Virus record (IMG/VR): IMGVR_UViG_2703718843_000003
Coordinates: 1 to 22,204 of that record
Source of the DNA: a virus
Taxonomy: Duplodnaviria > Heunggongvirae > Uroviricota > Caudoviricetes
Direction: 5' to 3' (one strand)
Length of the DNA stretch: 22,204 bases
The notes beneath the pieces are model-generated. The model saw nothing but the letters and a program-made list of their open reading frames with translations, had not been told where the DNA came from and ran no database searches. The position numbers were made by a program, and so were the translations under genes. Below, one piece after another: positions 1-22,204 of the stretch; position 1 is the first letter of the stretch, and each line of letters starts with the position of its first letter.

Positions 1-6
1 AGCCGC

Positions 7-32
7 TTCTTTCAAACCAACATTTAGTAAAA
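7..32. other. Putative serine-invertase crossover site (hix/gix-like)
   Basis: TTCTTTCAAACCAACATTTAGTAAAA lies about 55 bp upstream of the invertase start. Left half (TTCTTTCAAACC) resembles the remembered hix/gix half-site TTCTTGAAAACC / TTATCCAAAACC; right half is degenerate. Position directly 5' of the invertase gene is the canonical place for the proximal crossover site. Confidence 0.35.
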
Positions 33-86
33 TGCAGTTTTCCCGTCTGGCTGGCATTATTCGGACTTTTGCATAAGGGAAAGCAG

Positions 87-668
87 ATGCACATTGGCTA
101 TGTGCGCGTATCAACAAATGACCAGAACACGGCATTGCAACGTAACGCGCTTGAAAGTGCAGAATGTGAACTGATATTTGAAGATAAGATCAGCGGTAAG
201 ACATCAGACAGACCTGGGCTTAAAAAGGTGCTCAGGACGCTATCGGAAGGCGATACGTTGGTTGTCTGGAAACTGGATCGACTAGGACGTAGTATGCGCC
301 ACCTTGTTGCGTTGGTGGAAGAACTGCGGGAACGTGGTATTAATTTTCGCAGCCTGACAGACAGCATCGACACTTCTACACCGATGGGGCGCTTCTTCTT
401 TCATGTCATGGGTGCGCTGGCAGAAATGGAAAGAGAATTGATCATTGAGCGTACGCGTGCAGGATTAGCCGCTGCACGCGCGCAAGGAAGGATCGGAGGC
501 AGGAGACCAAAACTAACACCAGAACAATGGGCGCAGGCTGGGAGGCTAATAGCGGCAGGTGAAACACGGCAGAGGGTTGCCATAATTTACGATGTTGGAA
601 TATCAACGCTTTATAAAAAATTTCCGGCAACCAAAAGTAAGGACTCCGGCATGCACCGCCAGCTTTAA
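87..668 (+). CDS. Serine DNA invertase (Gin/Hin/Pin/Cin family resolvase-invertase)
   Basis: N-terminus MHIGYVRVSTNDQN with catalytic Ser context, VVWKLDRLGRS motif, C-terminal HTH (GRIGGRRPKLT...STLYKK); near-collinear with remembered Gin/Hin sequences. ATG at 87 preceded by AAGGGAAA; the track start at 69 is a TTG extension. Confidence 0.92.
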   Translation: MHIGYVRVSTNDQNTALQRNALESAECELIFEDKISGKTSDRPGLKKVLRTLSEGDTLVVWKLDRLGRSMRHLVALVEELRERGINFRSLTDSIDTSTPMGRFFFHVMGALAEMERELIIERTRAGLAAARAQGRIGGRRPKLTPEQWAQAGRLIAAGETRQRVAIIYDVGISTLYKKFPATKSKDSGMHRQL

Positions 669-752
669 CCATGCTGACCATGCGTATCGAGTACAGCCAT
701 TTTTAACGGTGCTGTAGCACTGTCAGTTATGGTAGTGTGTGCCGGAAGATGA

Positions 753-779
753 AGCGGGCAAATGCCCGCTTTAGTTTTA
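753..779. terminator. GC hairpin (GCGGGC-AAAT-GCCCGC) followed by TTTAGTTTT; possible bidirectional terminator between invertase and gene U
   Basis: Perfect 6-bp GC stem with 4-nt loop and T-rich tail on + strand; sits between convergent genes. Confidence 0.45.
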
Positions 780-790
780 TGTGGATGTTG

Positions 791-1279
791 TCAGAACAGG
801 CCCGACAGCTTACTACTGGCAGAGTTGTAGGCGGACGTGGCTTTATCCTTCAAGCCAGAAAGTAAATCGCCAACAGACGACGCTTGCAGACGCTCGCGTA
901 AATCTTCATCACAGCGCTGAAAGCTGATCGAAAACTCAATTTTTTTTGCCTTTCCGTAGCGGTCAAATTCCGTATGCGTGGCCTGTAGCCCAGTCAGCAC
1001 ATACATCCCGTAAATCTGCCCTGCACCGCTGATTAAAGGCCACGGACGCCCGGTGTATGCCTGCGTTGCCAGAACGGTAAGAGACACGTCGCCGCCCGTA
1101 ATCTCAGGGTAAAGCACCCCGTCAAGGTTGATCTGCGTTTCACCAGCGCCGATGTACTGCCATTTTGCCGATCGGTTGATGCGATCATTCTTCACATGAC
1201 GCCAGTTCAGCGAGTGGCGTAACTGCTGGTAAGGCAGTGTCTTCAGTTCAAAAACGAACATCCCGTATATCATCATCAT
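791..1279 (-). CDS. U: Phage tail protein gpU (P2 U homolog)
   Basis: 162-aa ORF directly downstream of the tape measure gene on the same strand; SD AGGGGAGG 7 nt upstream of ATG at 1279; sequence (WRHVKNDRINRS..WQYIGAGETQINLDGVLYPEITGG) matches my recollection of P2 gpU. Confidence 0.85.
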   Translation of the reverse strand: MMMIYGMFVFELKTLPYQQLRHSLNWRHVKNDRINRSAKWQYIGAGETQINLDGVLYPEITGGDVSLTVLATQAYTGRPWPLISGAGQIYGMYVLTGLQATHTEFDRYGKAKKIEFSISFQRCDEDLRERLQASSVGDLLSGLKDKATSAYNSASSKLSGLF

Positions 1280-1293
1280 AATGTTGCCTCCCC

Positions 1294-4200
1294 TTAATCT
1301 CTGTCTTTGAAGCTGCCGCGATTGAGTCGCGCAAGGCGGGCCATTTCGGCATTCACTGCGTCGGCGGCAATCCGGCCAATTTCGCGAGCGTCCTGCCGGT
1401 CAACGCCGTGGAGGTGTACGTGGATTTCCCCCGTAAAGCCGCCAGCGGCAACCGATGTATTGCTGGCGCTGCGACTGACTGGTAAAAGTTCAGCCTGTTT
1501 AACGGGAAGCGATGCCGCCACCACTGCGGGGCGTGCGCTTAACCCGTTGTTCCTGACCGTGCTGGCCAGTTGCGATTCCTTCCATTCCCCACGAACGGCC
1601 AGCGCACGCGGCAGGTTTTTAAACACGATATCGCCGGGGCCGATCTTCTTCGTGTTATCGGCTGTCGCTTTAGTGTTGCTGTCGATGCTTTGCAACCTGC
1701 GCATAGTGCCGTTATCGCCGGTCAGCGGTGATGTGGGTTGCGGTGCGCCAGGCGGAACGTTATTCACCTCAACTTTTTTCGGCGTAACCTTCGCGATATC
1801 TCCCTGAAGAAGGGCGACTTTGTCCTGAAGAACAGCCATGCGCTGTGCGTCTTCGATCTTCTTTCTGGCTTTTTCGGCCTCATCTGGCAGAACGCCGAGC
1901 TTTTCAAGGATCCAGGCTAATGTATCCAGCAGCATTTTTGCAGGCGTCAGAACAAGCTGGAGCGCACCACCAAGAACGTTACCGAATACCTCACCGGCGC
2001 TGGCGCACTTATCCAGTGTTTCCTTGCAGGACTCCATCGGGGAAAGCAGAGATTTGAACCAGTTAAAGGCCTGGCTGACAGCGCTGCCTATCGCGTCAAA
2101 GATGGGTCTGAACTGCGAGAAGGTGTCACGTAACGGGGCCAGTCTTTCCATGATGCCGGTGAATACGCCAGCAAAAAATGCTTTAAGAGGCTCCCAGTAA
2201 CGCCAGATAAGCACCCCGGCAGCAATAAACGCCGCCACTATCAGGCCAATCGGACTCAACAGCAGCGACAGCGCTGTACCCAGCATAGACACCGCCGCAG
2301 TGATCATGCTCCATATGGCCGGTAAACCTGTCAGGCGAAGGGCGAGCATACCGAGGTTTTTTGTCAGTGCTCCCAGCGCGGCACCAGGTGTAAGAAATAC
2401 CCCCATGAGTGCGCCGCGCATAGCGGGGATGATGGTTGAAATTCCGCGCATTTTTCCTGCTAACGAGCCGAGAACTGGCCCCCATCCGCGCACGCTTGCC
2501 ATTGCCGGGCCGGAAGCTGTGCCGAGTGTTCGCAGAGCGGCAATCGTTCCGGTTATGCCTCTGCCCCCTGTCAGCAGGGTAAAACTTAACTGAAGTTTAG
2601 CCAGTGGACCCATCAGCAGACCGATCGCCAGCGATGTGCCGCCAATGGCGGCGGTCAGTGCCAGAACGCTACCACCGACAACCAGCAGGGATTGTGCGAG
2701 CTTCGGATTCTCCTTAGCCCACTGCGTCATATTCCCCACAACGTCACTCAGTCCCTGAGTCAGGCCACGAAGCTGATTGTTGACGAGATCGTTAATCTGG
2801 ATGCGGAAGCCTTCCCAGGCGCTGTCCAGATTTTTGAGATCGCCATCAAGGTTATCCGCCATTATTTTGGCGGCTTTCTGCGCCTCACCTTTGGCGTTTT
2901 TCAGTTCACCCAGCAGCTTCTGAAGTTCACCGCTACCGGCTGACATAACCAGAGCCTGGAATGACTTTGACGCCTCTTCACCGGCAATATCTTTGAAGAA
3001 TGAGAGCTTATCGGTATCCCCGTACTTGCTGATCTTTTTATAGAGATCGGTTAGAACCACTTCAGCAGGGCGCATTTTCCCCGTTGCGTCAGCGACTTCT
3101 ACGCCCAATTCTTTAAGCGCGGTTTTTGCCCTGCCGGTTGGTGCGGCAAGGCGTGAAAATGTGGCCTGCAAACCCGTACCGGCGATACTCCCGCGCAGGC
3201 CTACGTTCGCCATCACGCCGATCATGGCCGTGGTCTGTTCGACGCTGACTCCAAGGTTGGAAAGACCTGTCCCGGCGTACTTCATCGCTTCACCGATATT
3301 TTGCAGATCGGTGTTGGTTCTGGTGAACGCGCCAGTTAATACGTCGCTGACGCGATCCATTTCTTTGGGGTCGAGACGGAACTGAGACAGGATGTTTGAG
3401 CTGATATCAGCGCTTTCACCTAAATCCATACCACCGGCCAGCGCCATATTGAGCACACCAGGCAGTGCGGCCTGAATGGCCTGCGGAGTGAAACCGGCCA
3501 TAGCGAGAAATGCCTGCCCACTGGCGGCGTCGGTCGTGGTGAACTGTGTTTCAGCACCCAGCTTTTTGGCCTGGTCACGAAGTGCTGAAAAGTCAACGGA
3601 GCTTTTATCTATGCGGGTCAGCGCCTGCACGCGGGACATTTCCCGATCAAACCCAACGGCGGGGGATAAGAACCGCCCCGCTACGTAACCGGCAGCAGTG
3701 GCCCCGGCAACGGCCATCGTGCCACCGCCGCGAAGTTTACCCGCTGTTTGCTGCATCTGGTCGTAGCGTGCGCGTGCCTGCGTGACAGCGGCAAGCTGTC
3801 GCCGTTCCCGCTCAAGCGTCTGGTTGTACTGTTCGGTTCGACGTATGGCACTCTGAATGGTGCGATCGCTTCCGACAAGTGAAACGCCGTGACTGCGCAG
3901 CGCCTGTGAGGCGGCGCGCAGCTTAACCATTTCCTGTGTGCGTGCAGAGTTAAGGCGCTCCAGCTTTGCGGCCAGCGCTGCCATATGTGCTTTTTGCTTG
4001 TCTGTAAGCTGTGTACCTTCCCGCTGCGCCTGATTCAGCCCTTCAAGCGTCCGGCTGGCGTCGTCAATTTTGCGGGAGGTCTTTTGCACGCTGTCGCGCA
4101 GACGGTTGAATGTGCGGGACTGACTGTCCAGATCTTTAATGCTGGACTGCGTTTTTTTGAGGGATTCAGACAAACCGCCCGCACTCTGGCGGGCGGCATT

Positions 4201-4296
4201 GACCGGGCGGGTAAGTTTATCGATCGCGCTGAACGCGACGCGGATATTAAGGCTTTTCACTGTCACTGGCTCCACTTCGGACAGCCGCCCGCTCAC
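1294..4296 (-). CDS. T: Tail tape measure protein gpT
   Basis: 1000-codon ORF; coiled-coil N-terminal third, Gly/Ala-rich hydrophobic central region, position between E/E' and U. The codon at 4296 is GTG, not ATG; alternative GTG starts at 4266 and 4260 (GGAG 9 nt upstream of the latter), so the 5' end is uncertain. Confidence 0.85.
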   Translation of the reverse strand: MSGRLSEVEPVTVKSLNIRVAFSAIDKLTRPVNAARQSAGGLSESLKKTQSSIKDLDSQSRTFNRLRDSVQKTSRKIDDASRTLEGLNQAQREGTQLTDKQKAHMAALAAKLERLNSARTQEMVKLRAASQALRSHGVSLVGSDRTIQSAIRRTEQYNQTLERERRQLAAVTQARARYDQMQQTAGKLRGGGTMAVAGATAAGYVAGRFLSPAVGFDREMSRVQALTRIDKSSVDFSALRDQAKKLGAETQFTTTDAASGQAFLAMAGFTPQAIQAALPGVLNMALAGGMDLGESADISSNILSQFRLDPKEMDRVSDVLTGAFTRTNTDLQNIGEAMKYAGTGLSNLGVSVEQTTAMIGVMANVGLRGSIAGTGLQATFSRLAAPTGRAKTALKELGVEVADATGKMRPAEVVLTDLYKKISKYGDTDKLSFFKDIAGEEASKSFQALVMSAGSGELQKLLGELKNAKGEAQKAAKIMADNLDGDLKNLDSAWEGFRIQINDLVNNQLRGLTQGLSDVVGNMTQWAKENPKLAQSLLVVGGSVLALTAAIGGTSLAIGLLMGPLAKLQLSFTLLTGGRGITGTIAALRTLGTASGPAMASVRGWGPVLGSLAGKMRGISTIIPAMRGALMGVFLTPGAALGALTKNLGMLALRLTGLPAIWSMITAAVSMLGTALSLLLSPIGLIVAAFIAAGVLIWRYWEPLKAFFAGVFTGIMERLAPLRDTFSQFRPIFDAIGSAVSQAFNWFKSLLSPMESCKETLDKCASAGEVFGNVLGGALQLVLTPAKMLLDTLAWILEKLGVLPDEAEKARKKIEDAQRMAVLQDKVALLQGDIAKVTPKKVEVNNVPPGAPQPTSPLTGDNGTMRRLQSIDSNTKATADNTKKIGPGDIVFKNLPRALAVRGEWKESQLASTVRNNGLSARPAVVAASLPVKQAELLPVSRSASNTSVAAGGFTGEIHVHLHGVDRQDAREIGRIAADAVNAEMARLARLNRGSFKDRD

Positions 4297-4725
4297 GCCA
4301 GGCTATGACTTCGCCCAGTTCCATCGTGAAGACTTCAGAGGGCGGCCAGTTGAAAACAACCGCGATATCAGCGACCAGATCGTCGATCAGGTCGAACCGC
4401 AGGAGTGTTACTGATTCTCCGTCTCCGCCTCGCTCGACGCTCCAGACCCCGCAGGTGTCAAAAAAGGGACGAGCGCTTCAGACAGGCTGACAAAATCGCG
4501 CGTATCCATTTCGTTGATTTCGGTCTGTTTGAGGCGTGGTGACGTGACACGGGTCAGCAGTACCGCCACCGAATCCACATCCATATTCATCACGTTGACC
4601 AGCTTCAGACCGCGCAGGGAGCCAGCCTGTTTGATCTCATCCGTGATCGTTACCTGAGTAATTTTCTCATCGCCGCGAACAACGGGTTTTGCCAGAGTAA
4701 TGGCGTTATCGTTTTTTTTGCTCAT
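4247..4725 (-). CDS. E': gpE+E' fusion made by programmed -1 ribosomal frameshift
   Basis: After a -1 slip at T TTT TTG (+ strand 4459-4465) the reading frame stays open for about 70 codons (DTCGVWSVERGG...WPPSEVFTMELGEVIAWRERAAVRSGASDSEKP) and ends at TAA 4247-4249, overlapping the start of T. Hand-translated from the sequence. Confidence 0.6.
4408..4725 (-). CDS. E: Tail assembly chaperone gpE (zero-frame product)
   Basis: Starts MSKKNDNAITLAKPVV with GGAG 11 nt upstream of ATG at 4725; upstream of T on the same strand as in P2; contains the slippery site near its 3' end. Confidence 0.8.
   Translation of the reverse strand: MSKKNDNAITLAKPVVRGDEKITQVTITDEIKQAGSLRGLKLVNVMNMDVDSVAVLLTRVTSPRLKQTEINEMDTRDFVSLSEALVPFLTPAGSGASSEAETENQ
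4459..4465 (-). other. Slippery heptamer T-TTT-TTG for the E to E' -1 frameshift
   Basis: Minus-strand CCC TTT TTT GAC in the gpE frame; the canonical X XXY YYZ heptamer used by P2-like and lambda-like tail chaperone pairs. Confidence 0.6.
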
Positions 4726-4773
4726 TGTTGAATGCTCCGGGCGGCAAGGCTGTGCCGCCACTTATCAGGTTAA

Positions 4774-5289
4774 TCAGTTACCCATTCCCAGCGCAGACGT
4801 GATGCGGTCAGGGTAGATATTTTTGCCGTCTTTCTTGTAGATGAAGTTCAGAAGATCAAACTCAAACAGCGGCTTATCGTCGATGGTGAGTTTGTAATAA
4901 GTGTTCTTCATCGTGTAGCTGACGGAGGTGTCTTCTCCCTGCTTGCTTTCGCCGCCGTCCATTTCGGTGATGCGGCCGCGCAGTTCGACCTCAACCAGCA
5001 GGCTTTCACCATCGGTGTAATACTCCCCGGCGAAGCGGAAACGGGTTTCGTCGATATCGCCGCAGTAGTTCAGCAGTAACGACTGAACCAGACCGCCAAC
5101 CACCATCGTGGTATCCAGCGCGCCACTGTCCAGACCGAGATCCACCGCAGCGGAGCCAATCATCCCGCCCCCCTGAAAATCTTCAGTTTTACGGGTCAGT
5201 TTTGGCAGCGTCACGGAAGAGACTTTGCCGATGCAGTTGCTGCCGTTCACAAAGCAGGTGAACAGGCGTAGTTTGTGAGGAACCGCCAT
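4774..5289 (-). CDS. FII: Tail tube protein gpFII
   Basis: 171-aa ORF immediately downstream of the sheath gene (FI stop and FII ATG adjacent at 5290/5289); size and position match P2 FII. Confidence 0.9.
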   Translation of the reverse strand: MAVPHKLRLFTCFVNGSNCIGKVSSVTLPKLTRKTEDFQGGGMIGSAAVDLGLDSGALDTTMVVGGLVQSLLLNYCGDIDETRFRFAGEYYTDGESLLVEVELRGRITEMDGGESKQGEDTSVSYTMKNTYYKLTIDDKPLFEFDLLNFIYKKDGKNIYPDRITSALGMGN

Positions 5290-6471
5290 TTATGCACCTC
5301 CCAGGGAAGAAAACGCCGATTCGAAATACTCGTCCGTGAAGGTCTGGTAGAGCGTAAGATCTTCCATTGGCGGAACCGGTGTATATTTATAGCGAATGCG
5401 CACCTGACCCTGACGGAGACCGGTTGTCGGGTTATCCAGGATATCAAACCAGCATTCAGCACCAATCAGCCGCCCCTGCGTCACCAGCGAATTGAGTTTG
5501 CCGCTGATGCCGCTGACCACGTCCTTGACGTTGGCCGGGGTTAGCGGTTCGTCCACTGATTCAAATTGCGCCTCAGCGATACTGTCAGCCAGAATCTGTG
5601 CCGTACGGGTGTAAACCTCAAAAATATAATCTTTGGTGTCCGTAACGCGGTTGCCCCAGAACCGGAAACCATTACGCTTGATGAGCGTCGTGATCTCCTT
5701 GTTGTTGAGTTCGTTCGCGTCGCTGTCTTCGGCCTGAAGCGACCAGAAAACATCCTGCGAAATACCCAGCACGTTGCTTACCGACACATTGGAAAGCGAT
5801 TTGTGCCAGCCCTGATTGTTGTCAATCAGCGCGCGAAGGCCGCAGGCATAGGCCGGGGCCGGGAAGGTTTCGTTCTCTCCGGTCAGCGGGTTGTAGGCGA
5901 TGAAATCAGGCCAGATAAGCATTAGCTCGCGATAGGCGAAGGTCGCACGATATGCGGTAGCTTCAGCCATCGTTTTGCAGCCGTAGCAACTGGCGTAAAC
6001 AAACGCGCGCAAATTCTGAGCAATCACACACAACGCAGAAGTGACTTCTTCCGTGTCGTAGCCCGGCACGGCCAGAATGCGTGGACGATAACCAACCTTC
6101 TGCTCGGCAGTCAGAAACGCGTACATGCCGGTATAGCTGCCGTCTTCTGCCGTGCCACCCATGATGAGCTGCGACTGCGTTTTACCGCCTTCCTCTTCCG
6201 TGGCTGCTGCCACGCGCACAACGATAACCTTCGGACTGGTCTGGTCAGCGATGGCTTTAAGCGTTTTGTACAGGGAGCCGGTTTTACCCGCCTTATCCAG
6301 CACGTTGTTAACCCGCGTCAGCAACACGGGGGTATTCAGGGGAAAGGTTTCCGCATCGGCATCATCCGCCACGGCAACGACCCCAATGACACTTGATTCA
6401 ATGTCATTGATGGCCGTCACCAGGTCGGTATTCTCCCGGACGCGTACACCGTGGAAACGTGTCTCTGACAT
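5290..6471 (-). CDS. FI: Contractile tail sheath protein gpFI
   Basis: Start chosen at ATG 6471 (MSETRFHGVRV...), preceded by GGTGG, matching the remembered P2 FI N-terminus MSDYHHGVQV; conserved C-terminal region (GFRFWGNR...YKYTPVPPMEDLT). The track ORF start at 6516 is an upstream extension. Confidence 0.9.
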   Translation of the reverse strand: MSETRFHGVRVRENTDLVTAINDIESSVIGVVAVADDADAETFPLNTPVLLTRVNNVLDKAGKTGSLYKTLKAIADQTSPKVIVVRVAAATEEEGGKTQSQLIMGGTAEDGSYTGMYAFLTAEQKVGYRPRILAVPGYDTEEVTSALCVIAQNLRAFVYASCYGCKTMAEATAYRATFAYRELMLIWPDFIAYNPLTGENETFPAPAYACGLRALIDNNQGWHKSLSNVSVSNVLGISQDVFWSLQAEDSDANELNNKEITTLIKRNGFRFWGNRVTDTKDYIFEVYTRTAQILADSIAEAQFESVDEPLTPANVKDVVSGISGKLNSLVTQGRLIGAECWFDILDNPTTGLRQGQVRIRYKYTPVPPMEDLTLYQTFTDEYFESAFSSLGGA

Positions 6472-6624
6472 GTTAGCCACCATTACGTTATTGAGTTCGC
6501 AGTGATAATCCCTCATGTTGGAATGTCACTCACGCTATTGCGGGTCTGGCCGGACGGCGACAACAAAAACCGATTTGGTGTCTCCCGCGCGCGTGGGATC
6601 CTTCGCCGGAAGAAGGGGGAAAGC

Positions 6625-7761
6625 ATGGCACTTACAGACCTGACAAAATCACTTAACGACGCCATCAGCACTTATAACGATTCACTGACCGAGGCGGTAA
6701 AAAGTCCGGGATTCAGCATAACGATGGGCGGTAAGGTACGGACGCAGCTTGACGAGCGGATCATGTCGTTGTCACTGACGGACAACCGGGGTTTTGATGC
6801 CGATCAGCTTTCCATTTCTATTGATGACAGTGACGGTATGGTTGCTCTGCCTCCGCGTGGCGCTGAGCTTGCGGTATCAATTGGCTGGCTGGGTGAGCCG
6901 CTGATTTACAAGGGACTGTACACGGTTGATGAGGTATCCCATGAAGGGCCGGGTGATATCATTGGTATTACTGCCCGCAGCGCTGATTTTCGTGAAGAGT
7001 TCAACGTAAAGCGCGAAGTCTCATGGCATGACGTGACCGTTGAGCGCGTTGTGTCGGCCATAGCGCACCGCTACGGTCTGAAAGCGCAGATCAGTGAAAT
7101 GCTCATGGATATTGAGATTGATCACGCTGACCAGACGCAGGAAAGCGATATGTCATTCCTTACCCGCATGGCGGAAATGCTGGGCGCAATTGCCACCGTA
7201 AAGAACGGCAGTCTGCTGTTTATCCTGCCGGGCGGAGGTGTTACCGCTGACGGGAAGGCGCTCCCCTCTGCCAGTATTAACCGGACGAGCGGCGATCGGC
7301 ACCGCTTTCGTATTGCCGATCGGGATGCGTATACCGGCGTCAGGGCTTACTGGCTGGATCTCAATTTTGGCAAAAAGAAAAAGGTCAGTGTTAAGCGCCG
7401 TAAGCCAGCAAAGCCCAAAAAAGAGAAGAGCAGCAGCCGTGAGGGCGATTACATGGAGGGCGCTGACGGTAACGTCTATGTGCTGCGCAAAACCTACCAG
7501 AATGAAGAGGCGGCGAAACGTGCTGCGGCGGCAAAATGGCAACAGCTTCAGCGTGGTGCGGCAGAGTTTTCGATCACCCTGGCGCGTGGCCGCGCTGAGC
7601 TTTACCCCGAAATGCATGTCACGGTTAGCGGTTTTAAGGATGAAATAGACAATCAGGACTGGATTATTGCGCGTGCTGAGCACGTCATAGACGACAGCGG
7701 TTTTACCACCCGGCTGGAGCTGGAAGCAAAAATACCTGACTGGATAGCGGAAACTGAATAA
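6625..7761 (+). CDS. D: Tail protein gpD (late control gene D family)
   Basis: ATG at 6625 with AAGGGGGA SD; sequence (SLTDNRGFDADQL..SWHDVTV..DRHRFRIADRDAYTGV..KWQQLQRGAAEFSI) matches my recollection of P2 gpD including the basic lysine-rich linker. Confidence 0.9.
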   Translation: MALTDLTKSLNDAISTYNDSLTEAVKSPGFSITMGGKVRTQLDERIMSLSLTDNRGFDADQLSISIDDSDGMVALPPRGAELAVSIGWLGEPLIYKGLYTVDEVSHEGPGDIIGITARSADFREEFNVKREVSWHDVTVERVVSAIAHRYGLKAQISEMLMDIEIDHADQTQESDMSFLTRMAEMLGAIATVKNGSLLFILPGGGVTADGKALPSASINRTSGDRHRFRIADRDAYTGVRAYWLDLNFGKKKKVSVKRRKPAKPKKEKSSSREGDYMEGADGNVYVLRKTYQNEEAAKRAAAAKWQQLQRGAAEFSITLARGRAELYPEMHVTVSGFKDEIDNQDWIIARAEHVIDDSGFTTRLELEAKIPDWIAETE

Positions 7762-7800
7762 AATGAAATGGAGTTCAACTCCCACAGGGGAGCCATCATT

Positions 7801-8049
7801 ATGTTCAGATGTCCATTTTGCGGCGCTATGGCCCGCACCCGTACCAGCCGTAAAATAACCGATATGACTATCCGGCAATATCACCAGTGTCAGAATCTGG
7901 AATGTAGCCGGTCATTCACCACGCTAAACAGCGTGGAAAGGGAAGTAACAAAGCGTGCAGGCACTGCACCGTTACCGCCTGACTTTATCCCCCGCGATGC
8001 TTTCCCGGCATCACATTACGGCAGAGACCAGCTTAATCTGGCTCTCTGA
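7801..8049 (+). CDS. ogr: Ogr/Delta-family zinc-finger late transcription activator
   Basis: MFRCPFCGAMARTRTSRKITDMTIRQYHQCQNLECSRSF carries the C-x2-C...C-x4-C finger and closely resembles remembered P2 Ogr; GGGGAG SD 8 nt upstream of ATG 7801; directly follows D as in P2. Confidence 0.85.
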   Translation: MFRCPFCGAMARTRTSRKITDMTIRQYHQCQNLECSRSFTTLNSVEREVTKRAGTAPLPPDFIPRDAFPASHYGRDQLNLAL

Positions 8050-8174
8050 CCACTGTCAAAGTGCCCCCGTAAATCCATTCAGTGCGGGGGCAACTTCAAG
8101 CAAAACGCTTTTTCCAGAGAAAATATCTTTGATAACATCGGTCAGCATATTAATAGCGATGATGGGATAGGGAT

Positions 8175-8558
8175 ATGAAAAAGGTGTTGTTAATACTGGC
8201 TTTGGTTTCTCTTGTTGGATGCAAGCCCAGCGCTGAAAAAGCTGTTGAACTAGGTAAGTCAGAAGTTGCAGCAGATGTTAGGGATCCAGATAGCGTAAAA
8301 TTTAGATATCTTCGATTTGTTCAGGGTGAGGATTCACCTGATGGTGCGGTCACTGGCTATGTTTGCGGTCAGATCAATGCGAAAAATGGCTTTGGGGCTT
8401 ACGAAGGATTCTCTCCATTCCTTATGAAAATAAGCATGAAATCAAAGGGTACATTTTCCAAGGGGGTCACCTACTCTGTAACGGAGAAGAAAATCTACAC
8501 CCGGTTTAGTGACCCAGTACCAGCGTCATACAAAGACAAGTGCGGCCCTGATGAGTGA
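8175..8558 (+). CDS. Secreted lipoprotein (cargo/moron gene), function unknown
   Basis: N-terminal signal peptide MKKVLLILALVSLVG followed by lipobox Cys (LVGC, Cys16) and K at +2; lower GC than flanking core genes; followed by a strong intrinsic terminator. Sits between ogr and the att region, where P2 itself has no gene as far as I recall. Confidence 0.75.
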   Translation: MKKVLLILALVSLVGCKPSAEKAVELGKSEVAADVRDPDSVKFRYLRFVQGEDSPDGAVTGYVCGQINAKNGFGAYEGFSPFLMKISMKSKGTFSKGVTYSVTEKKIYTRFSDPVPASYKDKCGPDE

Positions 8559-8576
8559 GGGATGTTTCAGTAAGAT

Positions 8577-8600
8577 GCCGGGCAGAAGCCCGGCTTTTTT
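8577..8600 (+). terminator. Rho-independent terminator after the lipoprotein gene
   Basis: GCCGGGC-AGAA-GCCCGGC perfect 7-bp stem followed by TTTTTT. Confidence 0.7.
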
Positions 8601-8693
8601 ATGTCGAAGTGTAGTCAAAATGTAGACGAAGTTTAGAATAAATCCTTTTATTCCAGTTTGTTACATGCGGAATATCTTCACCATCCCTGTCTT

Positions 8694-8720
8694 CCCCCAC
8701 ATGATGTGGGGGTTTTTTTT
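8694..8720 (+). terminator. Second hairpin plus T8 tract inside the att region
   Basis: CCCCCAC-ATGAT-GTGGGGG followed by TTTTTTTT; may be the reconstituted terminator of the host gene the phage integrates next to, or part of the attP core. Confidence 0.55.
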
Positions 8721-8732
8721 ATCAATCACTTA
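8720..8732. promoter_or_regulatory. IHF-consensus site (WATCAANNNNTTR) in the att region
   Basis: TATCAATCACTTA matches the IHF consensus exactly; located between the hairpin and the Int arm-type repeats. Confidence 0.35.
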
Positions 8733-8805
8733 CATCGGTTTCCGTAAGAAAACAGTAACTTAAGAAAACCTATAAGGGACTGGAAGGGCTACAAAGTTCT
8801 GAGAG

Positions 8806-8826
8806 TGTGGACACTATGTGGACACT
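8806..8826. repeat. Tandem direct repeat TGTGGACACT x2 (putative Int arm-type P' sites)
   Basis: Perfect 10-bp tandem copies separated by 1 bp, 12 bp from the int stop codon; matches the P2 Int arm-site consensus TGTGGACA as I remember it. Degenerate copies (GTGTAGTC, TGTAGACG) occur at 8609-8628 on the other side. Confidence 0.5.
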
Positions 8827-8838
8827 CAGAAGGGAAAT

Positions 8839-9819
8839 TTATAACGTCACTCCGCCTTTTAGAGGATTCAGCGCGACGGCATTTTGCAGGTAGTCAGGCG
8901 CAAGGTGCGCATAGGCCATCGTCTGCTGAATGCTCGCATGTCCCAGAATCTGTTGCAGTGCGATTATATTGCCCCCATTCATCATGAAATGGCTTGCGAA
9001 TGTATGCCGCAGGATGTGGGTTGCCTGATTGGGTGGTATATCTGGCTTCACTCTGCGTAAAATCCCGCAAAACTTCTCATAATCAACTTTGAATAATTTA
9101 GCGCTGGCCTCCTCTTTAACTTTTTTCTCCAGTTCCTCAGAAATCGGCACGGTTCGCTTTTTACCGTTTTTGGTTTTCAGGAAGGTAACCCTGCAATTTG
9201 TAATCTGTGCTGGTTTTAGCGTGGCAACTTCCGTCCATCTTCCTCCAGTGCTCAGACATAAAAGTGCGACAAGTAAGTCATCACCATCCAAAACATTTAA
9301 CAGTTTTTCGATTTCTGCCTTTTCCAGGAACGTCATTTCAGGGTTGGCCTCCGCCAGTGGCGGCAGTCCGTGAATTGGGTGTTGCCCGGAAAATTCATCC
9401 AATTGAATTAATTTTGTGAACATGCCGGATAATCGGTACATGTCACGGTTTATCGTTGCGGCACTGATACCATTTCGTAGTCGCATGGAACGATAATCCA
9501 TCAAAGCTCTTTTGCTCATCCGGCTCACTGGTATATCACCTATGCCGCTGATGGTTTTGAGCAGATGATTAAACTCTTTTGTTCCATGCTCGTGGTTTTG
9601 CCCGTGATATTTCCACCAGATGTCCAGCAACTCACTCAAAGTTCTGCGATCTGCTCGCTGACCTGCCCATTCTTTCTGGCTGGCGTAGGCGATTGTGTAT
9701 CGCTCAAATGCTACAGCCTCAGCTTTTCTTTCAAATTTCCTGCGGATGCGTTTTCCGTCGCGACCGCGAGGTCTAATGTCCACTTCATAGCGTCCATCAT
9801 CGAGCTTCTTAATTGACAT
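8839..9819 (-). CDS. int: Tyrosine integrase (P2 Int family)
   Basis: Start MSIKKLDDGRYEVDIRPRGRDG matches the remembered P2 Int N-terminus; C-terminal catalytic region with HxLRHT (ATHILRHTFASH) and the conserved Tyr context (MAYAHLAP). Confidence 0.9.
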   Translation of the reverse strand: MSIKKLDDGRYEVDIRPRGRDGKRIRRKFERKAEAVAFERYTIAYASQKEWAGQRADRRTLSELLDIWWKYHGQNHEHGTKEFNHLLKTISGIGDIPVSRMSKRALMDYRSMRLRNGISAATINRDMYRLSGMFTKLIQLDEFSGQHPIHGLPPLAEANPEMTFLEKAEIEKLLNVLDGDDLLVALLCLSTGGRWTEVATLKPAQITNCRVTFLKTKNGKKRTVPISEELEKKVKEEASAKLFKVDYEKFCGILRRVKPDIPPNQATHILRHTFASHFMMNGGNIIALQQILGHASIQQTMAYAHLAPDYLQNAVALNPLKGGVTL

Positions 9820-9888
9820 AAGAAAGCCCTCTGACGCTGTATTCACCATCTTGGTAACAAATGGTGAAAATGTAATGTTTATAGAGTG

Positions 9889-10182
9889 TTAACCAGTCTG
9901 TTTTTCGGAGTGGTCTGATTCTGTTGGTTTTTGCCCAATGTGTGCGAGAGCCGGCGCGATCTGACCAGCTTGTGGTGACGTATCACCAGTCATTAACCAG
10001 AGCGTATATTTTTTAAATAAAGGCGTATTTGTGACTCGCATAACGATGCTGAGACCAGGGTCTTTATGCCCACTTTCGTAATTTTTGACTGTTCCTAGAG
10101 CTATCCCGCTAATTTCGCTGAATTTCGCCTGTGTTAAGCCTTCTGCTTTCCTAATCGCTTTCAGTTTTTCGAATGTCTGCAT
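9889..10182 (-). CDS. C: Immunity repressor C (P2 C family, HTH)
   Basis: 97 aa; N-terminal HTH and C-terminal TKYTLWLMTGD...QAGQIAPALAHIGQ match the remembered P2 C repressor; divergent from cox with face-to-face promoters. Confidence 0.85.
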   Translation of the reverse strand: MQTFEKLKAIRKAEGLTQAKFSEISGIALGTVKNYESGHKDPGLSIVMRVTNTPLFKKYTLWLMTGDTSPQAGQIAPALAHIGQKPTESDHSEKQTG

Positions 10183-10238
10183 TTGACAGTAACCTATTGG
10201 TGACTTATATTCCCGTCAAAAGGTTGTGTATTGGTGAC
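10183..10238 (+). promoter_or_regulatory. Early promoter Pe (TTGACA-N17-TATATT) with two direct operator repeats TATTGGTGAC
   Basis: -35 TTGACA at 10183-10188, -10 TATATT at 10206-10211, 17-bp spacer; 10-bp direct repeats at 10195-10204 and 10229-10238 flank the -10, the arrangement described for P2 C operators O1/O2. Confidence 0.5.
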
Positions 10239-10254
10239 CTTTTGAGTGTGTTAG

Positions 10255-10295
10255 CCAGTCCCTAGAAAGGACAGGGGCGACCTAGAAGGGACTGG
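10255..10295. repeat. Imperfect palindrome CCAGTCCC...GGGACTGG enclosing two CCTAGAA(A/G)GG repeats
   Basis: Perfect 8-bp inverted repeat arms 10255-10262 and 10288-10295 with internal direct repeats, upstream of cox; candidate Cox/Pc regulatory element. Confidence 0.3.
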
Positions 10296-10334
10296 ATCTA
10301 ATAAGGGTAACACGAAAGCAAAAAGGGCTAATCA

Positions 10335-10607
10335 ATGGAAGTCAATGACTATGTGATTCAGTACCCGATTGATGCGGTACATACGGTTAAGTTTGCAGAG
10401 TTACTTGGTAAGCCAGAAACGGCTGTAGTCAAGATGGTAAAAGAGAATAAATTGCCAGTTATTGAGCTTCGTGATCCAAGTAAGCCGAACGCTCGTGTCG
10501 GTGAGAAGTGGGTTTTCATTCCAGAGTTTAATCGCGCTGTACGAGAGGCGTTTTATAACCGACCAGTTGAACAGCGTGATGCATGGCTTTTGTGGATGGG
10601 GTTGTGA
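10335..10607 (+). CDS. cox: Cox (excisionase / lytic-switch repressor of Pc)
   Basis: 90 aa at the P2 cox position; KLPVIEL...GEKWVFIPEFN...RDAWLLWMGL resembles remembered P2 Cox. Confidence 0.8.
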   Translation: MEVNDYVIQYPIDAVHTVKFAELLGKPETAVVKMVKENKLPVIELRDPSKPNARVGEKWVFIPEFNRAVREAFYNRPVEQRDAWLLWMGL

Positions 10608-10609
10608 TT

Positions 10610-10780
10610 ATGAGTGAACCGCGTTGTATTGCTCAGTTACTGCGTAACGAAAGCCCCAGGGCGATTGACTTCACCATCACCCACGGTAAGGGGCGTAAGG
10701 GAATCATTATCCGCACCAAAAAACAGAGTCCGTTAAAAAAGGCTCTGACCTTTCTGAAAAGCTGGAGGGTCTGGAAATGA
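10610..10780 (+). CDS. Small hypothetical protein (P2 orf78 position)
   Basis: ATG 10610 three nt after cox stop; stop overlaps gene B start (ATGA); basic 56-aa product. Confidence 0.45.
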   Translation: MSEPRCIAQLLRNESPRAIDFTITHGKGRKGIIIRTKKQSPLKKALTFLKSWRVWK

Positions 10781-11277
10781 CAGTGATGACGCTCAATCTC
10801 GTTGAAAAACAGCCAGCAGCTATGCGCCGGATAATTGGCAAGCATCTTGCCGTCCCTCGCTGGCAGGATACATGTGATTATTATAATCAGATGATGGAAC
10901 GCGAACGGCTAACGGTTTGCTTCCATGCGCAGTTAAAACAACGTCACGCAACGATGCGTTTTGAAGAAATGAACGACGTCGAACGTGAACGGCTGGTTTG
11001 TGCAATTGATGAATTGCGTGGGGCATTCTCAAAACGCCGTCAGGTCGGTGCAAGTGAGTATGCATATATTAGCTTTTTAACTGTCAGTCAGCGCCGTACT
11101 TTATTTATGCATGCCAGATTGACTGAAAAAGAATTCAACCAGCCATACTGGCGAATTAATGAAGAGTCATGTTACTGGCGTGATGCTTTATTCCGTGCAT
11201 TACGTGAATTATTCAGCCTGTTTGAGTATGCACCGACAATTCTGACGTCGGTAAAACCAGAGCAATATCTGCATTAA
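10777..11277 (+). CDS. B: Replication protein gpB (helicase-loader-like)
   Basis: 166 aa; sequence essentially collinear with my recollection of P2 gpB (MTVMTLNLVEKQPAAMRRIIGKHLAVPRWQDTCDYYNQMMERERL...). Confidence 0.85.
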   Translation: MTVMTLNLVEKQPAAMRRIIGKHLAVPRWQDTCDYYNQMMERERLTVCFHAQLKQRHATMRFEEMNDVERERLVCAIDELRGAFSKRRQVGASEYAYISFLTVSQRRTLFMHARLTEKEFNQPYWRINEESCYWRDALFRALRELFSLFEYAPTILTSVKPEQYLH

Positions 11278-11340
11278 GTAATTAACCAGAGTTTTTAACG
11301 CACTTAATTGTGCGGGGCTTCTTTTTGCCTGGAGAAAGTC

Positions 11341-11565
11341 ATGCATACAGTTTCTGAAAATCAGTGCGGTAAATACGTATTACTGCTGCAACAGGCCAGA
11401 ACCGAAGCACAGGCCGACGCGGCGACGCGCTTTTCTTCTCATCTTGACGCCATGATTCGCCACATCACAAAGGCGGAGTTATCCCGCGTGGAGATAGTCG
11501 AGCTGCTCAGTCAGGAGTCGGAAAAATTTCACAATATCGGATTGTCTCGCGGGGAGGTGCTTTGA
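11341..11565 (+). CDS. Hypothetical protein (P2 orf80 position)
   Basis: ATG 11341 with GGAGAAAG SD; stop overlaps next start (TGATG). Confidence 0.45.
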
Positions 11566-11867
11566 TGTCCTGTTCTCATTCAGTTGTATTACTGAATAAC
11601 GCCTTAAAAATCGCCGTTATGGGAAATGGTGATTTGTCTCTTATTCAACTTTGTCTTGATAAAGAAAAACGCGACATAACTGAATCTGTTATCGCGATTT
11701 ATCAGAATGAATTAAACCTTCTGTCTGATGTGGTCAATTTACTTGTTAAACGCGCTGTATTCCACAAGCAAATTTCCTCCGTGGATGAACTGACAAAATT
11801 AACGACAGAAATCGTCAGCTATTGCGCTGATGAATTTAAGAAACTGAACGACAAAAGGAACTGGTAA
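11565..11867 (+). CDS. Hypothetical protein (P2 orf81 position)
   Basis: ATG 11565 with GGGGAGG SD; translationally coupled to neighbours. Confidence 0.5.
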   Translation: MSCSHSVVLLNNALKIAVMGNGDLSLIQLCLDKEKRDITESVIAIYQNELNLLSDVVNLLVKRAVFHKQISSVDELTKLTTEIVSYCADEFKKLNDKRNW

Positions 11868-12091
11868 TGCCGGACAACGTAGATTTCATTCAGGAACAAC
11901 AGGCTGAATTACTGGAGCGCCAGATTAACGCGGCAAGGGTAAAACATTGCGGTGTTTCTGCGCTGGTTTGCGAAGAGTGTGACGTGCCAATACCTGCTGC
12001 CCGTCGTGCGGCTTATCCGTCAGCCACGCGTTGTGTTTCCTGTCAGTCAGTCTTTGAAGCAAAAAACAAACATTACCGGAGAATGGCATGA
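11867..12091 (+). CDS. TraR/DksA-family C4 zinc-finger protein (P2 orf82 position)
   Basis: C-x2-C ... C-x2-C motif (VCEECDVPIP...RCVSCQ) typical of the phage TraR/DksA family; start overlaps previous stop (TAATG). Confidence 0.7.
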   Translation: MPDNVDFIQEQQAELLERQINAARVKHCGVSALVCEECDVPIPAARRAAYPSATRCVSCQSVFEAKNKHYRRMA

Positions 12092-12363
12092 GTATTCGTA
12101 TCGAAATTGGCGAACGTTATGTCGTTACCAGTGACAGCTTTCAGTTTATTCTCCACGAGAAAAAGAGAGCGGAAAGCGGTAAAAACGCCGGTCAGGAGTG
12201 GCTGGCGGTGGTTGGTTATTACCCGAAATTAAGCCAGCTCGTTTCCGGCCTGATGCATCACGATATTCTGACCGGAAGCGCAAAGTCTTTTGCTGATTTA
12301 AACGCGCAGGTTGAGCAACTCAGCAAGCGTTGTTCAGAGGCTTTTGGCTCATATGACCGTTAA
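12088..12363 (+). CDS. Hypothetical protein (P2 orf83 position)
   Basis: 91-aa ORF overlapping the start of gene A. Confidence 0.5.
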   Translation: MSIRIEIGERYVVTSDSFQFILHEKKRAESGKNAGQEWLAVVGYYPKLSQLVSGLMHHDILTGSAKSFADLNAQVEQLSKRCSEAFGSYDR

Positions 12364-14629
12364 AGCCTCCGGGCATTTTGTCCCTCCGTCAGCATTTGCC
12401 GCAGGCACCGGTGAGACGTTTACCGGTGCTTATGCATGGAACGCGCCACGCGAGGCCGTCGGGCGCGAAAGACCCCTTACACGTGACGAGATGCGTCAGG
12501 TGCAAGGTGTTTTATCCACGATTAACCGCCTGCCTTACTTTTTGCGCTCGCTGTTTACTTCACGCTATGACTACATCCGGCGCAATAAAAGCCCGGTACA
12601 CGGGTTTTATTTCCTCACATCCACTTTTCAGCGTCGTTTATGGCCGCGCATTGAGCGCGTGAATCAGCGCCATGAAATGAACACCGACGCGTCGTTGCTG
12701 TTTCTGGCAGAGCGTGACCACTATGCGCGTCTGCCGGGGATGAATGACAAGGAGCTGAAAAAGTTTGCCGCCCGTATTTCATCGCAGCTTTTCATGATGT
12801 ATGAGGAACTCTGCGATGCCTGGGTGGATGCGCATGGCGAAAAAGAATCACTGTTTACGGATGAGGCGCAGGATCATCTGTATGGTCATGTTGCTGGCGC
12901 TGCACGTGCTTTCAATATTTCCCCGCTCTACTGGAAAAAATACCGTAAAGGACAGATAACCACGAGGCAGGCATATTCTGCCATTGCCCGCCTGTTTAAC
13001 GATGAGTGGTGGACTCATCAGCTTAAAGGCCAGCGTATGCGCTGGCATGAAGCGTTACTGATAGCTGTCGGGGAGGTCAATAAAGACCGTTCTCCTTATG
13101 CCAGTAAACATGCCATTCGTGATGTGCGTGCGCGCCGCCAGGCAAATCTGGAATTTCTTAAATCGTGTGACCTTGAAAACAGGGAAACCGGCGAGCGCAT
13201 CGACCTTATCAGTAAGGTGATGAGCAGTATTTCTAATCCTGAAATTCGCCGGATGGAGCTGATGAACACCATTGCCGGTATTGAGCGTTACGCCGCTGCA
13301 GAGGGTGATGTGGGGATGTTTATCACGCTGACCGCGCCGTCAAAGTATCACCCGACACGTCAGGTCGGAAAAGGCGAAAGTAAAACCGTCCAGCTTAATC
13401 ACGGCTGGAATGATGAGGCATTTAATCCAAAGGATGCGCAGCGATATCTCTGCCATATCTGGAGCCTGATGCGCACGGCATTCAAGGATAATGATTTACA
13501 GGTCTACGGTTTGCGAGTCGTCGAGCCACACCACGACGGAACGCCGCACTGGCATATGATGCTTTTTTGTAATCCACGCCAGCGTAACCAGATTATCGAA
13601 ATCATGCGTCGCTATGCGCTCAAAGAGGATGGCGACGAAAGAGGAGCCGCGCGAAACCGTTTTCAGGCAAAACACCTTAACCGGGGCGGTGCTGCGGGGT
13701 ATATCGCGAAATACATCTCAAAAAATATCGACGGCTATGCACTGGATGGTCAGCTCGATAACGATACCGGCAGACCGCTGAAAGACACTGCCGCGGCTGT
13801 TACCGCATGGGCGTCAACGTGGCGCATTCCGCAATTTAAAACGGTTGGCCTGCCGACAATGGGGGCTTACCGTGAACTACGCAAATTGCCTCGCGGCGTC
13901 AGCATTGCTGATGAGTTTGACGAACGCGTCGAGGCTGCACGCGCTGCCGCAGACAGTGGCGATTTTGCGCTGTATATCAGCGCGCAAGGTGGGGCAAATG
14001 TCCCGCGCGATTGTCAGACTGTCAGGGTTGCCCGTAGCCCGTCGGATGACGTTAACGAGTATGAGGAAGAAGTCGAGAGAGTGGTCGGCATTTACGCGCC
14101 TCATCTCGGCGCGCGTCATATTCATATCACCAGAACGACGGACTGGCGCATTGTGCCGAAAGTGCCAGTCGTTGAGCCTTTGACTTTAAAAAGCGGCATC
14201 GCCGCGCCTCGGAGTCCTGTCAATAACTGTGGAAAGCTCACCGGTGGTGATACTTCGTTACCGGCTCCCACACCTTCTGAACACGCCGCAGCAGTGCTTA
14301 ATCTGGTTGATGACGGTGTTATCGAATGGAATGACCCGGAGGTCGTGAGGGCGCTCAGGGGCGCATTAAAATACGGGCTGAGAACACCAAATCGTCAGCA
14401 GAGAAACGGAAGCCCGTTAAAACCACATGAAATTGCACCATCGGCCAGACTGACCCGGTCGGAAAGAATGCAAATTACCCGTATCCGCGTTGACCTTGCT
14501 CAGAACGGTATCAGGCCGCAGCGATGGGAGCTTGAGGCGCTGGCGCGTGGCGCGACCGTAAATTATGACGGGAAACCTTTCACTTATCAGGTCGCTGATG
14601 ATTGGCCGGGATTTTTGTTACCCATTTGA
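12353..14629 (+). CDS. A: Replication initiation endonuclease gpA (rolling-circle nickase)
   Basis: Start MTVKASGHFVPPSAFAAGTGETFTGAYAWNAPREAVGRERPLTRDEMRQ is near-identical to the remembered P2 gpA; contains the HUH-like GTPHWHMMLF region and the active-site Tyr region AGYIAKYISKNIDGYAL. Confidence 0.9.
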   Translation: MTVKASGHFVPPSAFAAGTGETFTGAYAWNAPREAVGRERPLTRDEMRQVQGVLSTINRLPYFLRSLFTSRYDYIRRNKSPVHGFYFLTSTFQRRLWPRIERVNQRHEMNTDASLLFLAERDHYARLPGMNDKELKKFAARISSQLFMMYEELCDAWVDAHGEKESLFTDEAQDHLYGHVAGAARAFNISPLYWKKYRKGQITTRQAYSAIARLFNDEWWTHQLKGQRMRWHEALLIAVGEVNKDRSPYASKHAIRDVRARRQANLEFLKSCDLENRETGERIDLISKVMSSISNPEIRRMELMNTIAGIERYAAAEGDVGMFITLTAPSKYHPTRQVGKGESKTVQLNHGWNDEAFNPKDAQRYLCHIWSLMRTAFKDNDLQVYGLRVVEPHHDGTPHWHMMLFCNPRQRNQIIEIMRRYALKEDGDERGAARNRFQAKHLNRGGAAGYIAKYISKNIDGYALDGQLDNDTGRPLKDTAAAVTAWASTWRIPQFKTVGLPTMGAYRELRKLPRGVSIADEFDERVEAARAAADSGDFALYISAQGGANVPRDCQTVRVARSPSDDVNEYEEEVERVVGIYAPHLGARHIHITRTTDWRIVPKVPVVEPLTLKSGIAAPRSPVNNCGKLTGGDTSLPAPTPSEHAAAVLNLVDDGVIEWNDPEVVRALRGALKYGLRTPNRQQRNGSPLKPHEIAPSARLTRSERMQITRIRVDLAQNGIRPQRWELEALARGATVNYDGKPFTYQVADDWPGFLLPI

Positions 14630-14814
14630 GTAAAAATACAGCGTGATTTTATATGTCTTTGAATGGATTATGCGAAGCACCTCTAAGGTAGATGAGGAGC
14701 AATAGTGTGTTGAATCAGAAGGCTAAATTGTATTGAATCGTTAGCATGTAATTGAAGGCAGCTATTTGATTCGAGTCATAAAAGAGCATCTATTTCGGTT
14801 AATAAAACCATTGC

Positions 14815-14860
14815 GAGTGACTTTATGTCGAAGCATAATTCATCTCGAGCGAAGTCTTGC
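14815..14860. repeat. Direct repeat copy 1 (GAGTGACT ... GAGCGAAGTCTTGC)
   Basis: Shares an 8-mer and a perfect 14-mer with copy 2 at 15100-15124; copy 1 has a 24-bp internal expansion. Confidence 0.45.
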
Positions 14861-14889
14861 TAGTCTTTCATCGGATTGATGACGGGCGC

Positions 14890-14919
14890 AAAAAAACCAC
14901 CCTGGCAGGTGGTTTTTTT
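14890..14919. terminator. Bidirectional rho-independent terminator (A7-CCACC..GGTGG-T7)
   Basis: Symmetric hairpin flanked by an A run and a T run; closes the replication operon on + and the small minus-strand ORF on -. Confidence 0.65.
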
Positions 14920-14931
14920 GTTTGAAGCATA

Positions 14932-15045
14932 CTAAAGAAAAATACTTACATGGATATTACTGACGTTTACTGACAAACCACTCGGACTACCATATGGATA
15001 GCCAAAGAGGGCCAGAACGAGAATGCAGTAATAGCACTTCTTCAT
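14932..15045 (-). CDS. Candidate 37-codon mini-gene encoding a small hydrophobic Cys-containing peptide
   Basis: Minus-strand AGGAGG SD 4 nt before ATG (15045); peptide MKKCYYCILVLALFGYPYGSPSGLSVNVSNIHVSIFL; stop TAG at 14932-14934 followed 13 nt later by the bidirectional terminator. Not in the ORF track (below its length cutoff). Coding status unproven. Confidence 0.3.
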   Translation of the reverse strand: MKKCYYCILVLALFGYPYGSPSGLSVNVSNIHVSIFL

Positions 15046-15099
15046 ATCGCCTCCTGTAAGCAGAGGGCAATTTCCGCCGATATATGCGCTTCTAAGGCG

Positions 15100-15124
15100 G
15101 AGTGACTATTGAGCGAAGTCTTGC
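15100..15124. repeat. Direct repeat copy 2 (GAGTGACTATTGAGCGAAGTCTTGC)
   Basis: See copy 1; the two copies bracket the terminator and the mini-ORF. Confidence 0.45.
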
Positions 15125-15740: not shown

Positions 15741-15766
15741 TAACTTTTTTAACGTAGGAGGCAACC

Positions 15767-22202: not shown

Positions 22203-22204
22203 CC

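Follow-up and report, generated by a model that had tools for sequence, protein, structure and literature searches.

A Gin-type DNA invertase gene and its crossover site very probably mark the right boundary of a tail-fibre inversion switch in a P2-family Escherichia coli prophage

A recombinase gene stands at the left end of contig LOOK01000041.1 (GCA_001575435.1), separated from the contig end by a gix-like half-palindrome, and the locus raises the question of whether these two elements are the visible edge of an invertible tail-fibre segment. The window analysed here is that entire contig (22,204 nt), with window position 1 at record position 1; it stops 6 nt past the crossover site, and the partner site and cassettes would lie beyond the record. 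Judged from sequence comparison, positions 1..668 very probably hold the right boundary of a tail-fibre inversion switch of the Gin type, together with its recombinase gene, in a P2-family (Novemvirus-like) E. coli prophage. The features discussed are collected in Table 1.

Table 1. Features at the left end of the window, with the presumed or likely function given where a feature is predicted.
Feature	Position	Strand	Remarks
Inner end of putative invertible segment, six cassette codons (G L K E A A)	1..18	-	reads leftward off the contig
26-bp gix/cix/hix-type crossover site	7..32		TTCTTTCAAACC AA CATTTAGTAAAA
Site, inner half	7-18		
Site, central AA	19-20		strand exchange presumed here
Site, outer half	21-32		
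Spacer and 5′ leader of invertase gene	33..86	+	the same in each of the 11 loci that share the invertase
Ribosome-binding site AAGGGA	75-80	+	in invertase leader
DNA invertase gene	87..668	+	ATG start, 193 aa; small serine recombinase of the Gin/Cin/Pin/Hin/Fin family
Presumed recombinational (Fis-binding) enhancer	105..176		ungapped alignment to the P1-annotated enhancer, cin nt 19-90
Two conserved G-N13-C 15-mers in presumed enhancer	108-122 and 157-171		49 bp apart, centre to centre
GC-rich hairpin followed by T run	750..773	+	10-pair stem, 6 GC pairs, T-rich tail; likely terminator
gpU	791..1279	-	convergent with invertase gene

We examined the recombinase gene for its family and for its state. 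The reading frame (193 codons, opening with MHIGYVRVSTNDQ) scores for Pfam Resolvase (PF00239) on residues 3-135 (E=2.7e-51) and, C-terminally, for HTH_7 (PF02796) on residues 138-181 (E=4.2e-13). Its best matches among solved structures are the DNA-invertase chains 3uj3 and 4m6f, which have the Gin sequence (E about 1e-89) and to which residues 1-184 align collinearly and without gaps, whereas the gamma-delta and Tn3 resolvases match at E = 4e-30 or weaker. Identity over residues 1-180 rises from 78% with Mu Gin through 83% with P1 Cin to 87% with Fels-2 Fin, the closest of the four reference invertases compared. The nearest proteins in phage records are annotated as DNA invertases (from Citrobacter phage Chris1 and Yersinia phage YP3, both 93% identical), and many further phage records, known P2-family phages such as Fels-2 included, show 82-85% identity. 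The first-pass annotation had called the protein a Gin/Hin-type invertase, near-collinear with its namesakes; domains, structure matches and identities all bear this out. RefSeq labels the identical protein only as "recombinase family protein", and our analysis supports renaming it as a tail-fibre DNA invertase.

Catalytic Ser9, whose replacement had been raised as a sign of an inactivated enzyme, is intact within GYVRVSTNDQ. The alignment to chain 3uj3 shows no change at Arg42, which corresponds to Hin Arg43, or in the D64-R65-x-x-R68 motif. In Hin, residues K47, K/R48 and K/R51 of helix B are conserved only in Fis/enhancer-dependent invertases, and Q151, R154 and L155, in helix 1 of the DNA-binding domain, are likewise limited to that group (PMC3798978). 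All six of these Fis/enhancer-contact residues are matched in the window protein, as K46, K47, R50, Q150, R153 and L154, window numbering being that of Hin minus 1 (an offset verified on the 1hcr match). H106 and M114 are the same as in wild-type Mu gin, which suggests a regulated rather than a deregulated enzyme; position 114 of chain 3uj3 is V, which we take to be a hyperactive, Fis-independent mutant state.

The half-palindrome had been placed about 55 bp upstream of the invertase start, accurately, as its right end lies 54 nt before the ATG. Its reading as the invertase-proximal crossover site also holds. Window positions 1-290 align without any gap to Mu gixR and the 5′ part of gin, with the G-segment boundary and the gin start taken from the annotations of the Mu record, so that site, central dinucleotide and start codon all fall in the Mu register; Mu Gin also has 193 aa, and the crossover-to-start-codon distance is the same. 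We scored the window with a matrix built solely from Mu gix and P1 cix half-sites, which ranks 7..32 first of 22,179 positions at 14.3 bits. Some position reaches 14.3 bits in eight of 100 shuffled windows, which makes the site sequence by itself only moderately significant. Scanned with a simple consensus, the whole window yields one site; the inner half-site TTCTTTCAAACC matches 9/10 consensus positions, while the outer half-site CATTTAGTAAAA is a poor match (6/10), which we count against the switch reading.

The eight shuffled windows with an equally high 26-mer are what can be said for a chance half-palindrome standing beside a transposon or plasmid resolvase, with no invertase involved. 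This alternative is effectively refuted: the register is that of Mu gixR, similarity across 11 related loci breaks at the central dinucleotide and partner sites are present in relatives (see below), the Gin-sequence chains match at E=1e-89 against 4e-30 for resolvases, and the invertase-specific residues are in place. No res-type accessory sites or transposon genes were seen, and the neighbours are phage tail genes. Resolvase identity was accordingly rejected on scores, residues and genomic context, and the exact register, taken with the comparison with relatives, makes a chance origin of the site untenable.

The surroundings of the gene were searched for expression and regulatory signals. A pattern scan of positions 1..86 detected no consensus sigma-70 promoter for the invertase gene; at the other end, the hairpin is likely to be a terminator between the convergent invertase gene and gpU. 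Codon usage within the region that aligns to the P1 enhancer was compared in six pairs among the window gene, gin, cin and fin. The same codon is used at 0.55-0.68 of identical residues inside 105-176 and at 0.30-0.37 in the remaining gene, a pattern found in all six pairs (Fisher p for the three window pairs: 0.006, 0.07 and 0.07). This raised synonymous-site conservation fits a presumed constraint at the DNA level, the enhancer itself being putative. Fis sites are spaced 48 bp apart, which may be set beside the spacing of the two conserved 15-mers (Table 1).

What would lie beyond the left edge can be read in relatives. The identical invertase protein occurs in 283 blocks of a protein index, and ten loci were retrieved together with 10 kb of flank to either side; the 11 loci with identical invertase correspond to ten assemblies, one genome having been fetched twice. 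In one of them (L003) the flanking fieF-pfkA DNA is 100% identical to E. coli, and one relative is the complete E. coli genome XYEH3783. Leftward from the invertase, the 11 loci agree letter for letter as far as the central AA, past which their DNA is unrelated. In nine of the ten assemblies a second, inverted site is found 1.8-1.9 kb upstream, inside the tail-fibre gene H (for example TTCTCGAAAACC TT GGTTTGGGAGAA, in which the core TT is complementary to AA). Site-sized matches number 21 over the 262 kb of the 11 loci, every one of them at either expected position; the low-scoring right site of one relative falls under the scan cut-off. A consensus scan of the fibre-to-invertase region of the relatives found no further sites, with a maximum of two in each. 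Shufflons use a tyrosine recombinase, and Min-type systems have more than two crossover sites, as against exactly two in the window's relatives; a multi-site system (Min of p15B or the Rci shufflon) was rejected on the two sites per relative and the serine recombinase.

Between the two sites in the relatives, a fibre C-terminus and a tail-fibre assembly gene are encoded on the plus strand; opposed to them, on the minus strand, lies another such pair. By domain, the H genes (Phage_tail_fib) have Gp53-like_C or Collar ends, and Caudo_TAP chaperones are found on both strands. When the segment is inverted in silico between the core dinucleotides, an in-frame, full-length alternative fibre of 313-450 aa results in 9/9 cases, with the fusion junction ...NL/GLGE... 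(the slash marks the junction). Both orientations occur among the relatives: L008 carries the same cassette pair as L012 and L011 (85-90% identity) with the block inverted and the flanks collinear, and of two relatives that are both about 99% identical, L005 has the AAKRN-type cassette in the expressed position and L024 has it in the silent one. The inverted site, the lack of which upstream had been named as a ground for doubt, is thus present in relatives, and the first-pass expectation of an invertible tail-fibre segment just upstream agrees with nine of the ten assemblies as well as with the cassette start at window positions 1..18.

The relatives also include exceptions. L004, whose invertase is identical, has a single fibre and chaperone cassette, lacks consensus inner half-sites and has a degenerate left site, from which we conclude that locked versions exist; the silent-side inner half-site of L003 is weak, and L014 has a relic left site without any partner. 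The window could in principle come from such an orphan: with the partner site or one of the cassettes gone, the phage would be left with a fixed fibre and with an invertase that has no role or works only in trans on segments of other prophages, as Fin does on the Salmonella H segment. We regard this as improbable, given that 9/10 relatives are intact, that the window's inner half TTCTTTCAAACC is good (9/10) in contrast to that of L004, and that the contig breaks within the site, as a branch point would. Because a fixed version does exist, an intact switch in the window's own genome is likely rather than proven.

Six codons of a cassette are retained at the window's edge. The reverse complement of 1..18 reads GGT TTG AAA GAA GCG GCT (GLKEAA), and the 20-mer AGCCGCTTCTTTCAAACCAA is present in four IMG/VR phage contigs, each time at a gix-like site. 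In three of the four the cassette goes on as AAAAGGGATGTTGGGACTGG (translated ...KRDVGTG), and the fourth stops there. In L017, the GLKEAA cassette is joined in frame to the constant part of H. Positions 1..18 being the start of that cassette, the GLKEAA... cassette is the silent one, beside the invertase, in the captured orientation. Among genome contigs the 20-mer was found only in two unrelated metagenome-assembled genomes, which we take as chance, and no exact match to the window junction was found in three public collections (genome, viral and metagenome contigs). Prediction of host range for this prophage needs both cassettes, and both are off this contig.

The architecture is that of the Mu G, P1 C and e14 P segments. 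Fels-2 is closest: it has a gix-like site, TTCGCCTAAACCGAGGTTTATGAAAA, upstream of its invertase as in the window, and it shares with the window's relatives the order H, G, inverted G′, inverted H′, invertase. The invertible fragment of Fels-2 is 2.7 kb, and Fin also flips the Salmonella H segment (PMC3535392). The segment of the window's relatives is shorter (1.8-1.9 kb, against 2.7 kb in Fels-2), and the central dinucleotide is AA in the window and GA in Fels-2 and Mu. Mu follows the same logic, in that a constant S or H part is completed by either of two variable parts that come with separate chaperones (U/U′), yet it is a transposable, Mu-type phage with different cassettes and a G segment of about 3 kb. 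P1 differs in having its nearest cix where cin ends, on the 3′ side, and in the size of its segment (4.2 kb).

Gene order separates the window lineage from Fels-2 in one further respect. In P2, fun(Z) lies between G and FI, and the Fels-2 switch occupies that slot, its invertase being followed by FI-FII-E-T-U-D in the P2 orientation. In the window lineage FI-FII-E-T-U is turned round and the invertase gene converges on gpU; Enterobacter phage phiT5282H has the same arrangement. The earlier suggestion that the invertase takes the slot used by Z/fun in P2 therefore fits Fels-2 and the P2 position of fun(Z) and is only loosely right here, since with FI-FII-E-T-U inverted the invertase adjoins gpU and not FI.

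The gene and its site are real, but the switch to which they very probably belong is ordinary and not a new kind of system. Fibre switches of the Gin/Cin/Pin/Fin type have been textbook material since the 1980s. It has little consequence for basic biology, such switches being documented in P2-family prophages (Fels-2, EPEC). For the P2-like prophages of E. coli E2348/69, coexisting orientations were detected in clonal cultures by sequencing and PCR, and one EPEC locus has three inverted repeats and four variants (PMC4272514). The E2348/69 loci share host species, phage family and function with the window, and are likened to it here by description.

The ends of contigs were compared across assemblies. 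The exact gpU allele of the window is found in four contigs only, all from short reads and all ending at the site. Counted from the central dinucleotide, the window contig ends at -18 nt, an ENA metagenome scaffold at -13 nt, ABZDMX010000036.1 (GCA_050616915.1) at +2 nt and a Logan assembly contig of SRR33750034 at -28 nt; in the IMG/VR contig L017 the break falls 18 nt into a left site. Megabase-scale contigs of the relatives pass through the site unbroken. This pile-up of ends marks a branch in the assembly graph, due to mixed orientation, to cassette copies in other prophages, or to both. The end of the ENA contig coincides with the first difference between L012-type cassettes (GGTTTGGGAGAAG followed by C or G), as expected from mixed orientation.

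It is quite possible, if not the explanation we would favour, that the contig ends because a further prophage in the genome has copies of the cassettes and not because both orientations were present. L031, a P2-type prophage to which the contig's right half is 100% identical, possesses a gix-like site in H as well as an inverted tfa, and its tfa regions are 86-92% identical to those of Novemvirus-like relatives. The overhang of the Logan contig (28+2 = 30 nt) equals k-1 if k, as we presume for that assembly, is 31, which fits a merge into sequence with two contexts. The start of the expressed cassette of L031, GGTTTGGGAGAAGCGGCT, however, differs from the window 18-mer at two positions, and the ENA contig ends where mixed orientation would have it end. 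The two causes are not exclusive. The pile-up is supportive of the switch reading, not proof of it; a switch accounts for draft assemblies of the prophage breaking at exactly this spot, and contig ends may thus serve as a cheap flag for invertible segments.

The mechanism that we propose is modelled on the Gin/Hin/Cin paradigm. Invertase dimers would bind the 26-bp site and a second, inverted copy, which by the relatives should lie in the tail-fibre gene H at the distance given above. Host Fis would bind the putative enhancer within the 5′ part of the gene and bring both sites together in an invertasome, in which Ser9 is predicted to cleave the central 2 bp (AA/TT) and subunit rotation to invert the segment. 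The segment would consist of two opposed cassettes, each with a fibre C-terminal, receptor-binding part and an assembly chaperone, and inversion would fuse either of them, with the reading frame kept, to the constant N-terminal portion of H at ...NL/GL.... The alternative fusions may give two host ranges within the phage population. By analogy with these systems, a partner site in the window's genome, dependence on Fis, actual flipping and a change of host range are all expected.

At least five cassette types adjoin the same outer half-site among near-identical prophages (99% identical flanks). A speculative extension, which we consider unlikely, is that the site serves as a seam at which co-resident P2-family prophages trade fibre tips, and that the pile-up of ends reflects active flipping in cultures and in a gut metagenome. 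The apparent tandem of two such prophages in this contig, with a gix-like site also in the fibre gene of L031, would fit that idea; invertases working from one element on the other could then swap cassettes between them, or cause inversions and deletions of tens of kilobases.

The window as a whole appears to be composite. Positions 13..8723 are 99.3% identical to the right end of Novemvirus-like prophages running from ogr into fieF, and positions 11348..22204 are 100.000% identical to the left half of the P2-type prophage L031, whose type of structural genes is only about 68% identical to the Novemvirus-like ones. The integrase of the right part is the one found next to cpxP, the 41-nt att core at 8679..8719 is the cpxP terminator, and in the other contigs that share this gpU, ogr leads on into fieF. 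Most likely two distinct P2-family prophages stand in tandem at the cpxP/fieF attachment site and the contig spans their junction; alternatively, it derives from a mosaic phage in its circular form. An interpretation of the ogr-att-int continuity as a circular, excised phage was dropped given the identity to L031, the cpxP-side integrase and the ogr-to-fieF contigs. A cause for the right contig end in similarity between prophage types at the O-N junction was rejected, there being no such similarity; that end falls 2 nt after the gpO stop codon.

Contig LOOK01000041.1 is composite. Positions 1..8723 come from the right-hand end of a Novemvirus-like prophage, with 99.3% identity to the close relatives L003, L005, L007 and L010; at 8724..22204 there follows the left part of a P2-type (Peduovirus) prophage, of which another example, L031, is 100% identical to the window across 11348..22204. 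The att core shared at the junction is the terminator hairpin of cpxP, and the integrase in the right part is identical to that of prophages adjoining cpxP. Most likely the contig spans a tandem pair of distinct P2-family prophages at the cpxP/fieF attB; the other reading is a single mosaic phage captured as a circle. On its right, the contig stops (22200..22204) 2 nt past the stop codon of gpO. We compared the O-N junction of the two prophage types and found no high-identity sequence in common; our guess is that a third P2-type prophage in the source genome caused the break.

Features of the window.
Feature	Coordinates	Strand	Remarks
Tail genes U, T, E, FII, FI	791..6516	minus	
D and ogr	6625..8049	plus	
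127-aa ORF	8175..8558		between ogr and att site
att core	8679..8719		41 nt, shared; inside region 8560..8840
Replication gene A	12311..14629		
Cargo island	14629..18368		between replication gene A and portal gene
M78/ImmA-IrrE peptidase ORF	15767..16252		matches PADLOC capP, E=1e-30
199-aa ORF	16319..16918	plus	cargo island, neighbor of peptidase ORF
313-aa ORF	17001..17942	minus	cargo island, neighbor of peptidase ORF
Portal gene	18368..19402	minus	
Scaffold gene gpO	21348..22202		

Probably the source genome has a second fiber switch as well, one built from related cassettes (GLGEAAKRN or GLGEGSALP), because P2-type prophages that match the right half of the window through their left halves, L031 identically, carry a gix-like crossover site within their own tail-fiber gene H. 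In L031 this site lies at positions 19575..19600 of that locus, and the H genes of L027, L029, L032, L033 and L035 likewise contain one; at least L027, L031 and L035 have an inverted chaperone gene downstream as well. A further relative, L004, has an invertase identical to that of the window, and at 8803..9946 it carries a single fiber and chaperone cassette. Its outer half-sites are retained, but its inner halves bear no relation to the consensus. L004 appears to be a locked form derived from the fiber switch.

The U-T-E-FII-FI block is inverted as a unit relative to the gene order of P2 and Fels-2, and a divergent intergenic region separates it from plus-strand D and ogr. No gix-like sites border the block. 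Enterobacter phage phiT5282H has the same tail-gene arrangement as the window. The 127-aa ORF gave no match in Pfam or PADLOC; it is found in the 99% relatives L003, L005, L007 and L010, and is missing from prophages of the type in XYEH3783, a complete E. coli genome with the identical invertase.

The cargo island occupies the P2 old/tin-type hotspot. Neither of the ORFs neighboring its peptidase ORF matched anything in Pfam or PADLOC. In other prophages that share these flanks, the slot is taken by genes of known or candidate defense type, among them a SIR2-domain gene adjoining a DUF87 ATPase gene, GmrSD with HEPN, kinases, and restriction-modification genes. The island of the window could be uncharacterized defense cargo under CapP-like control.
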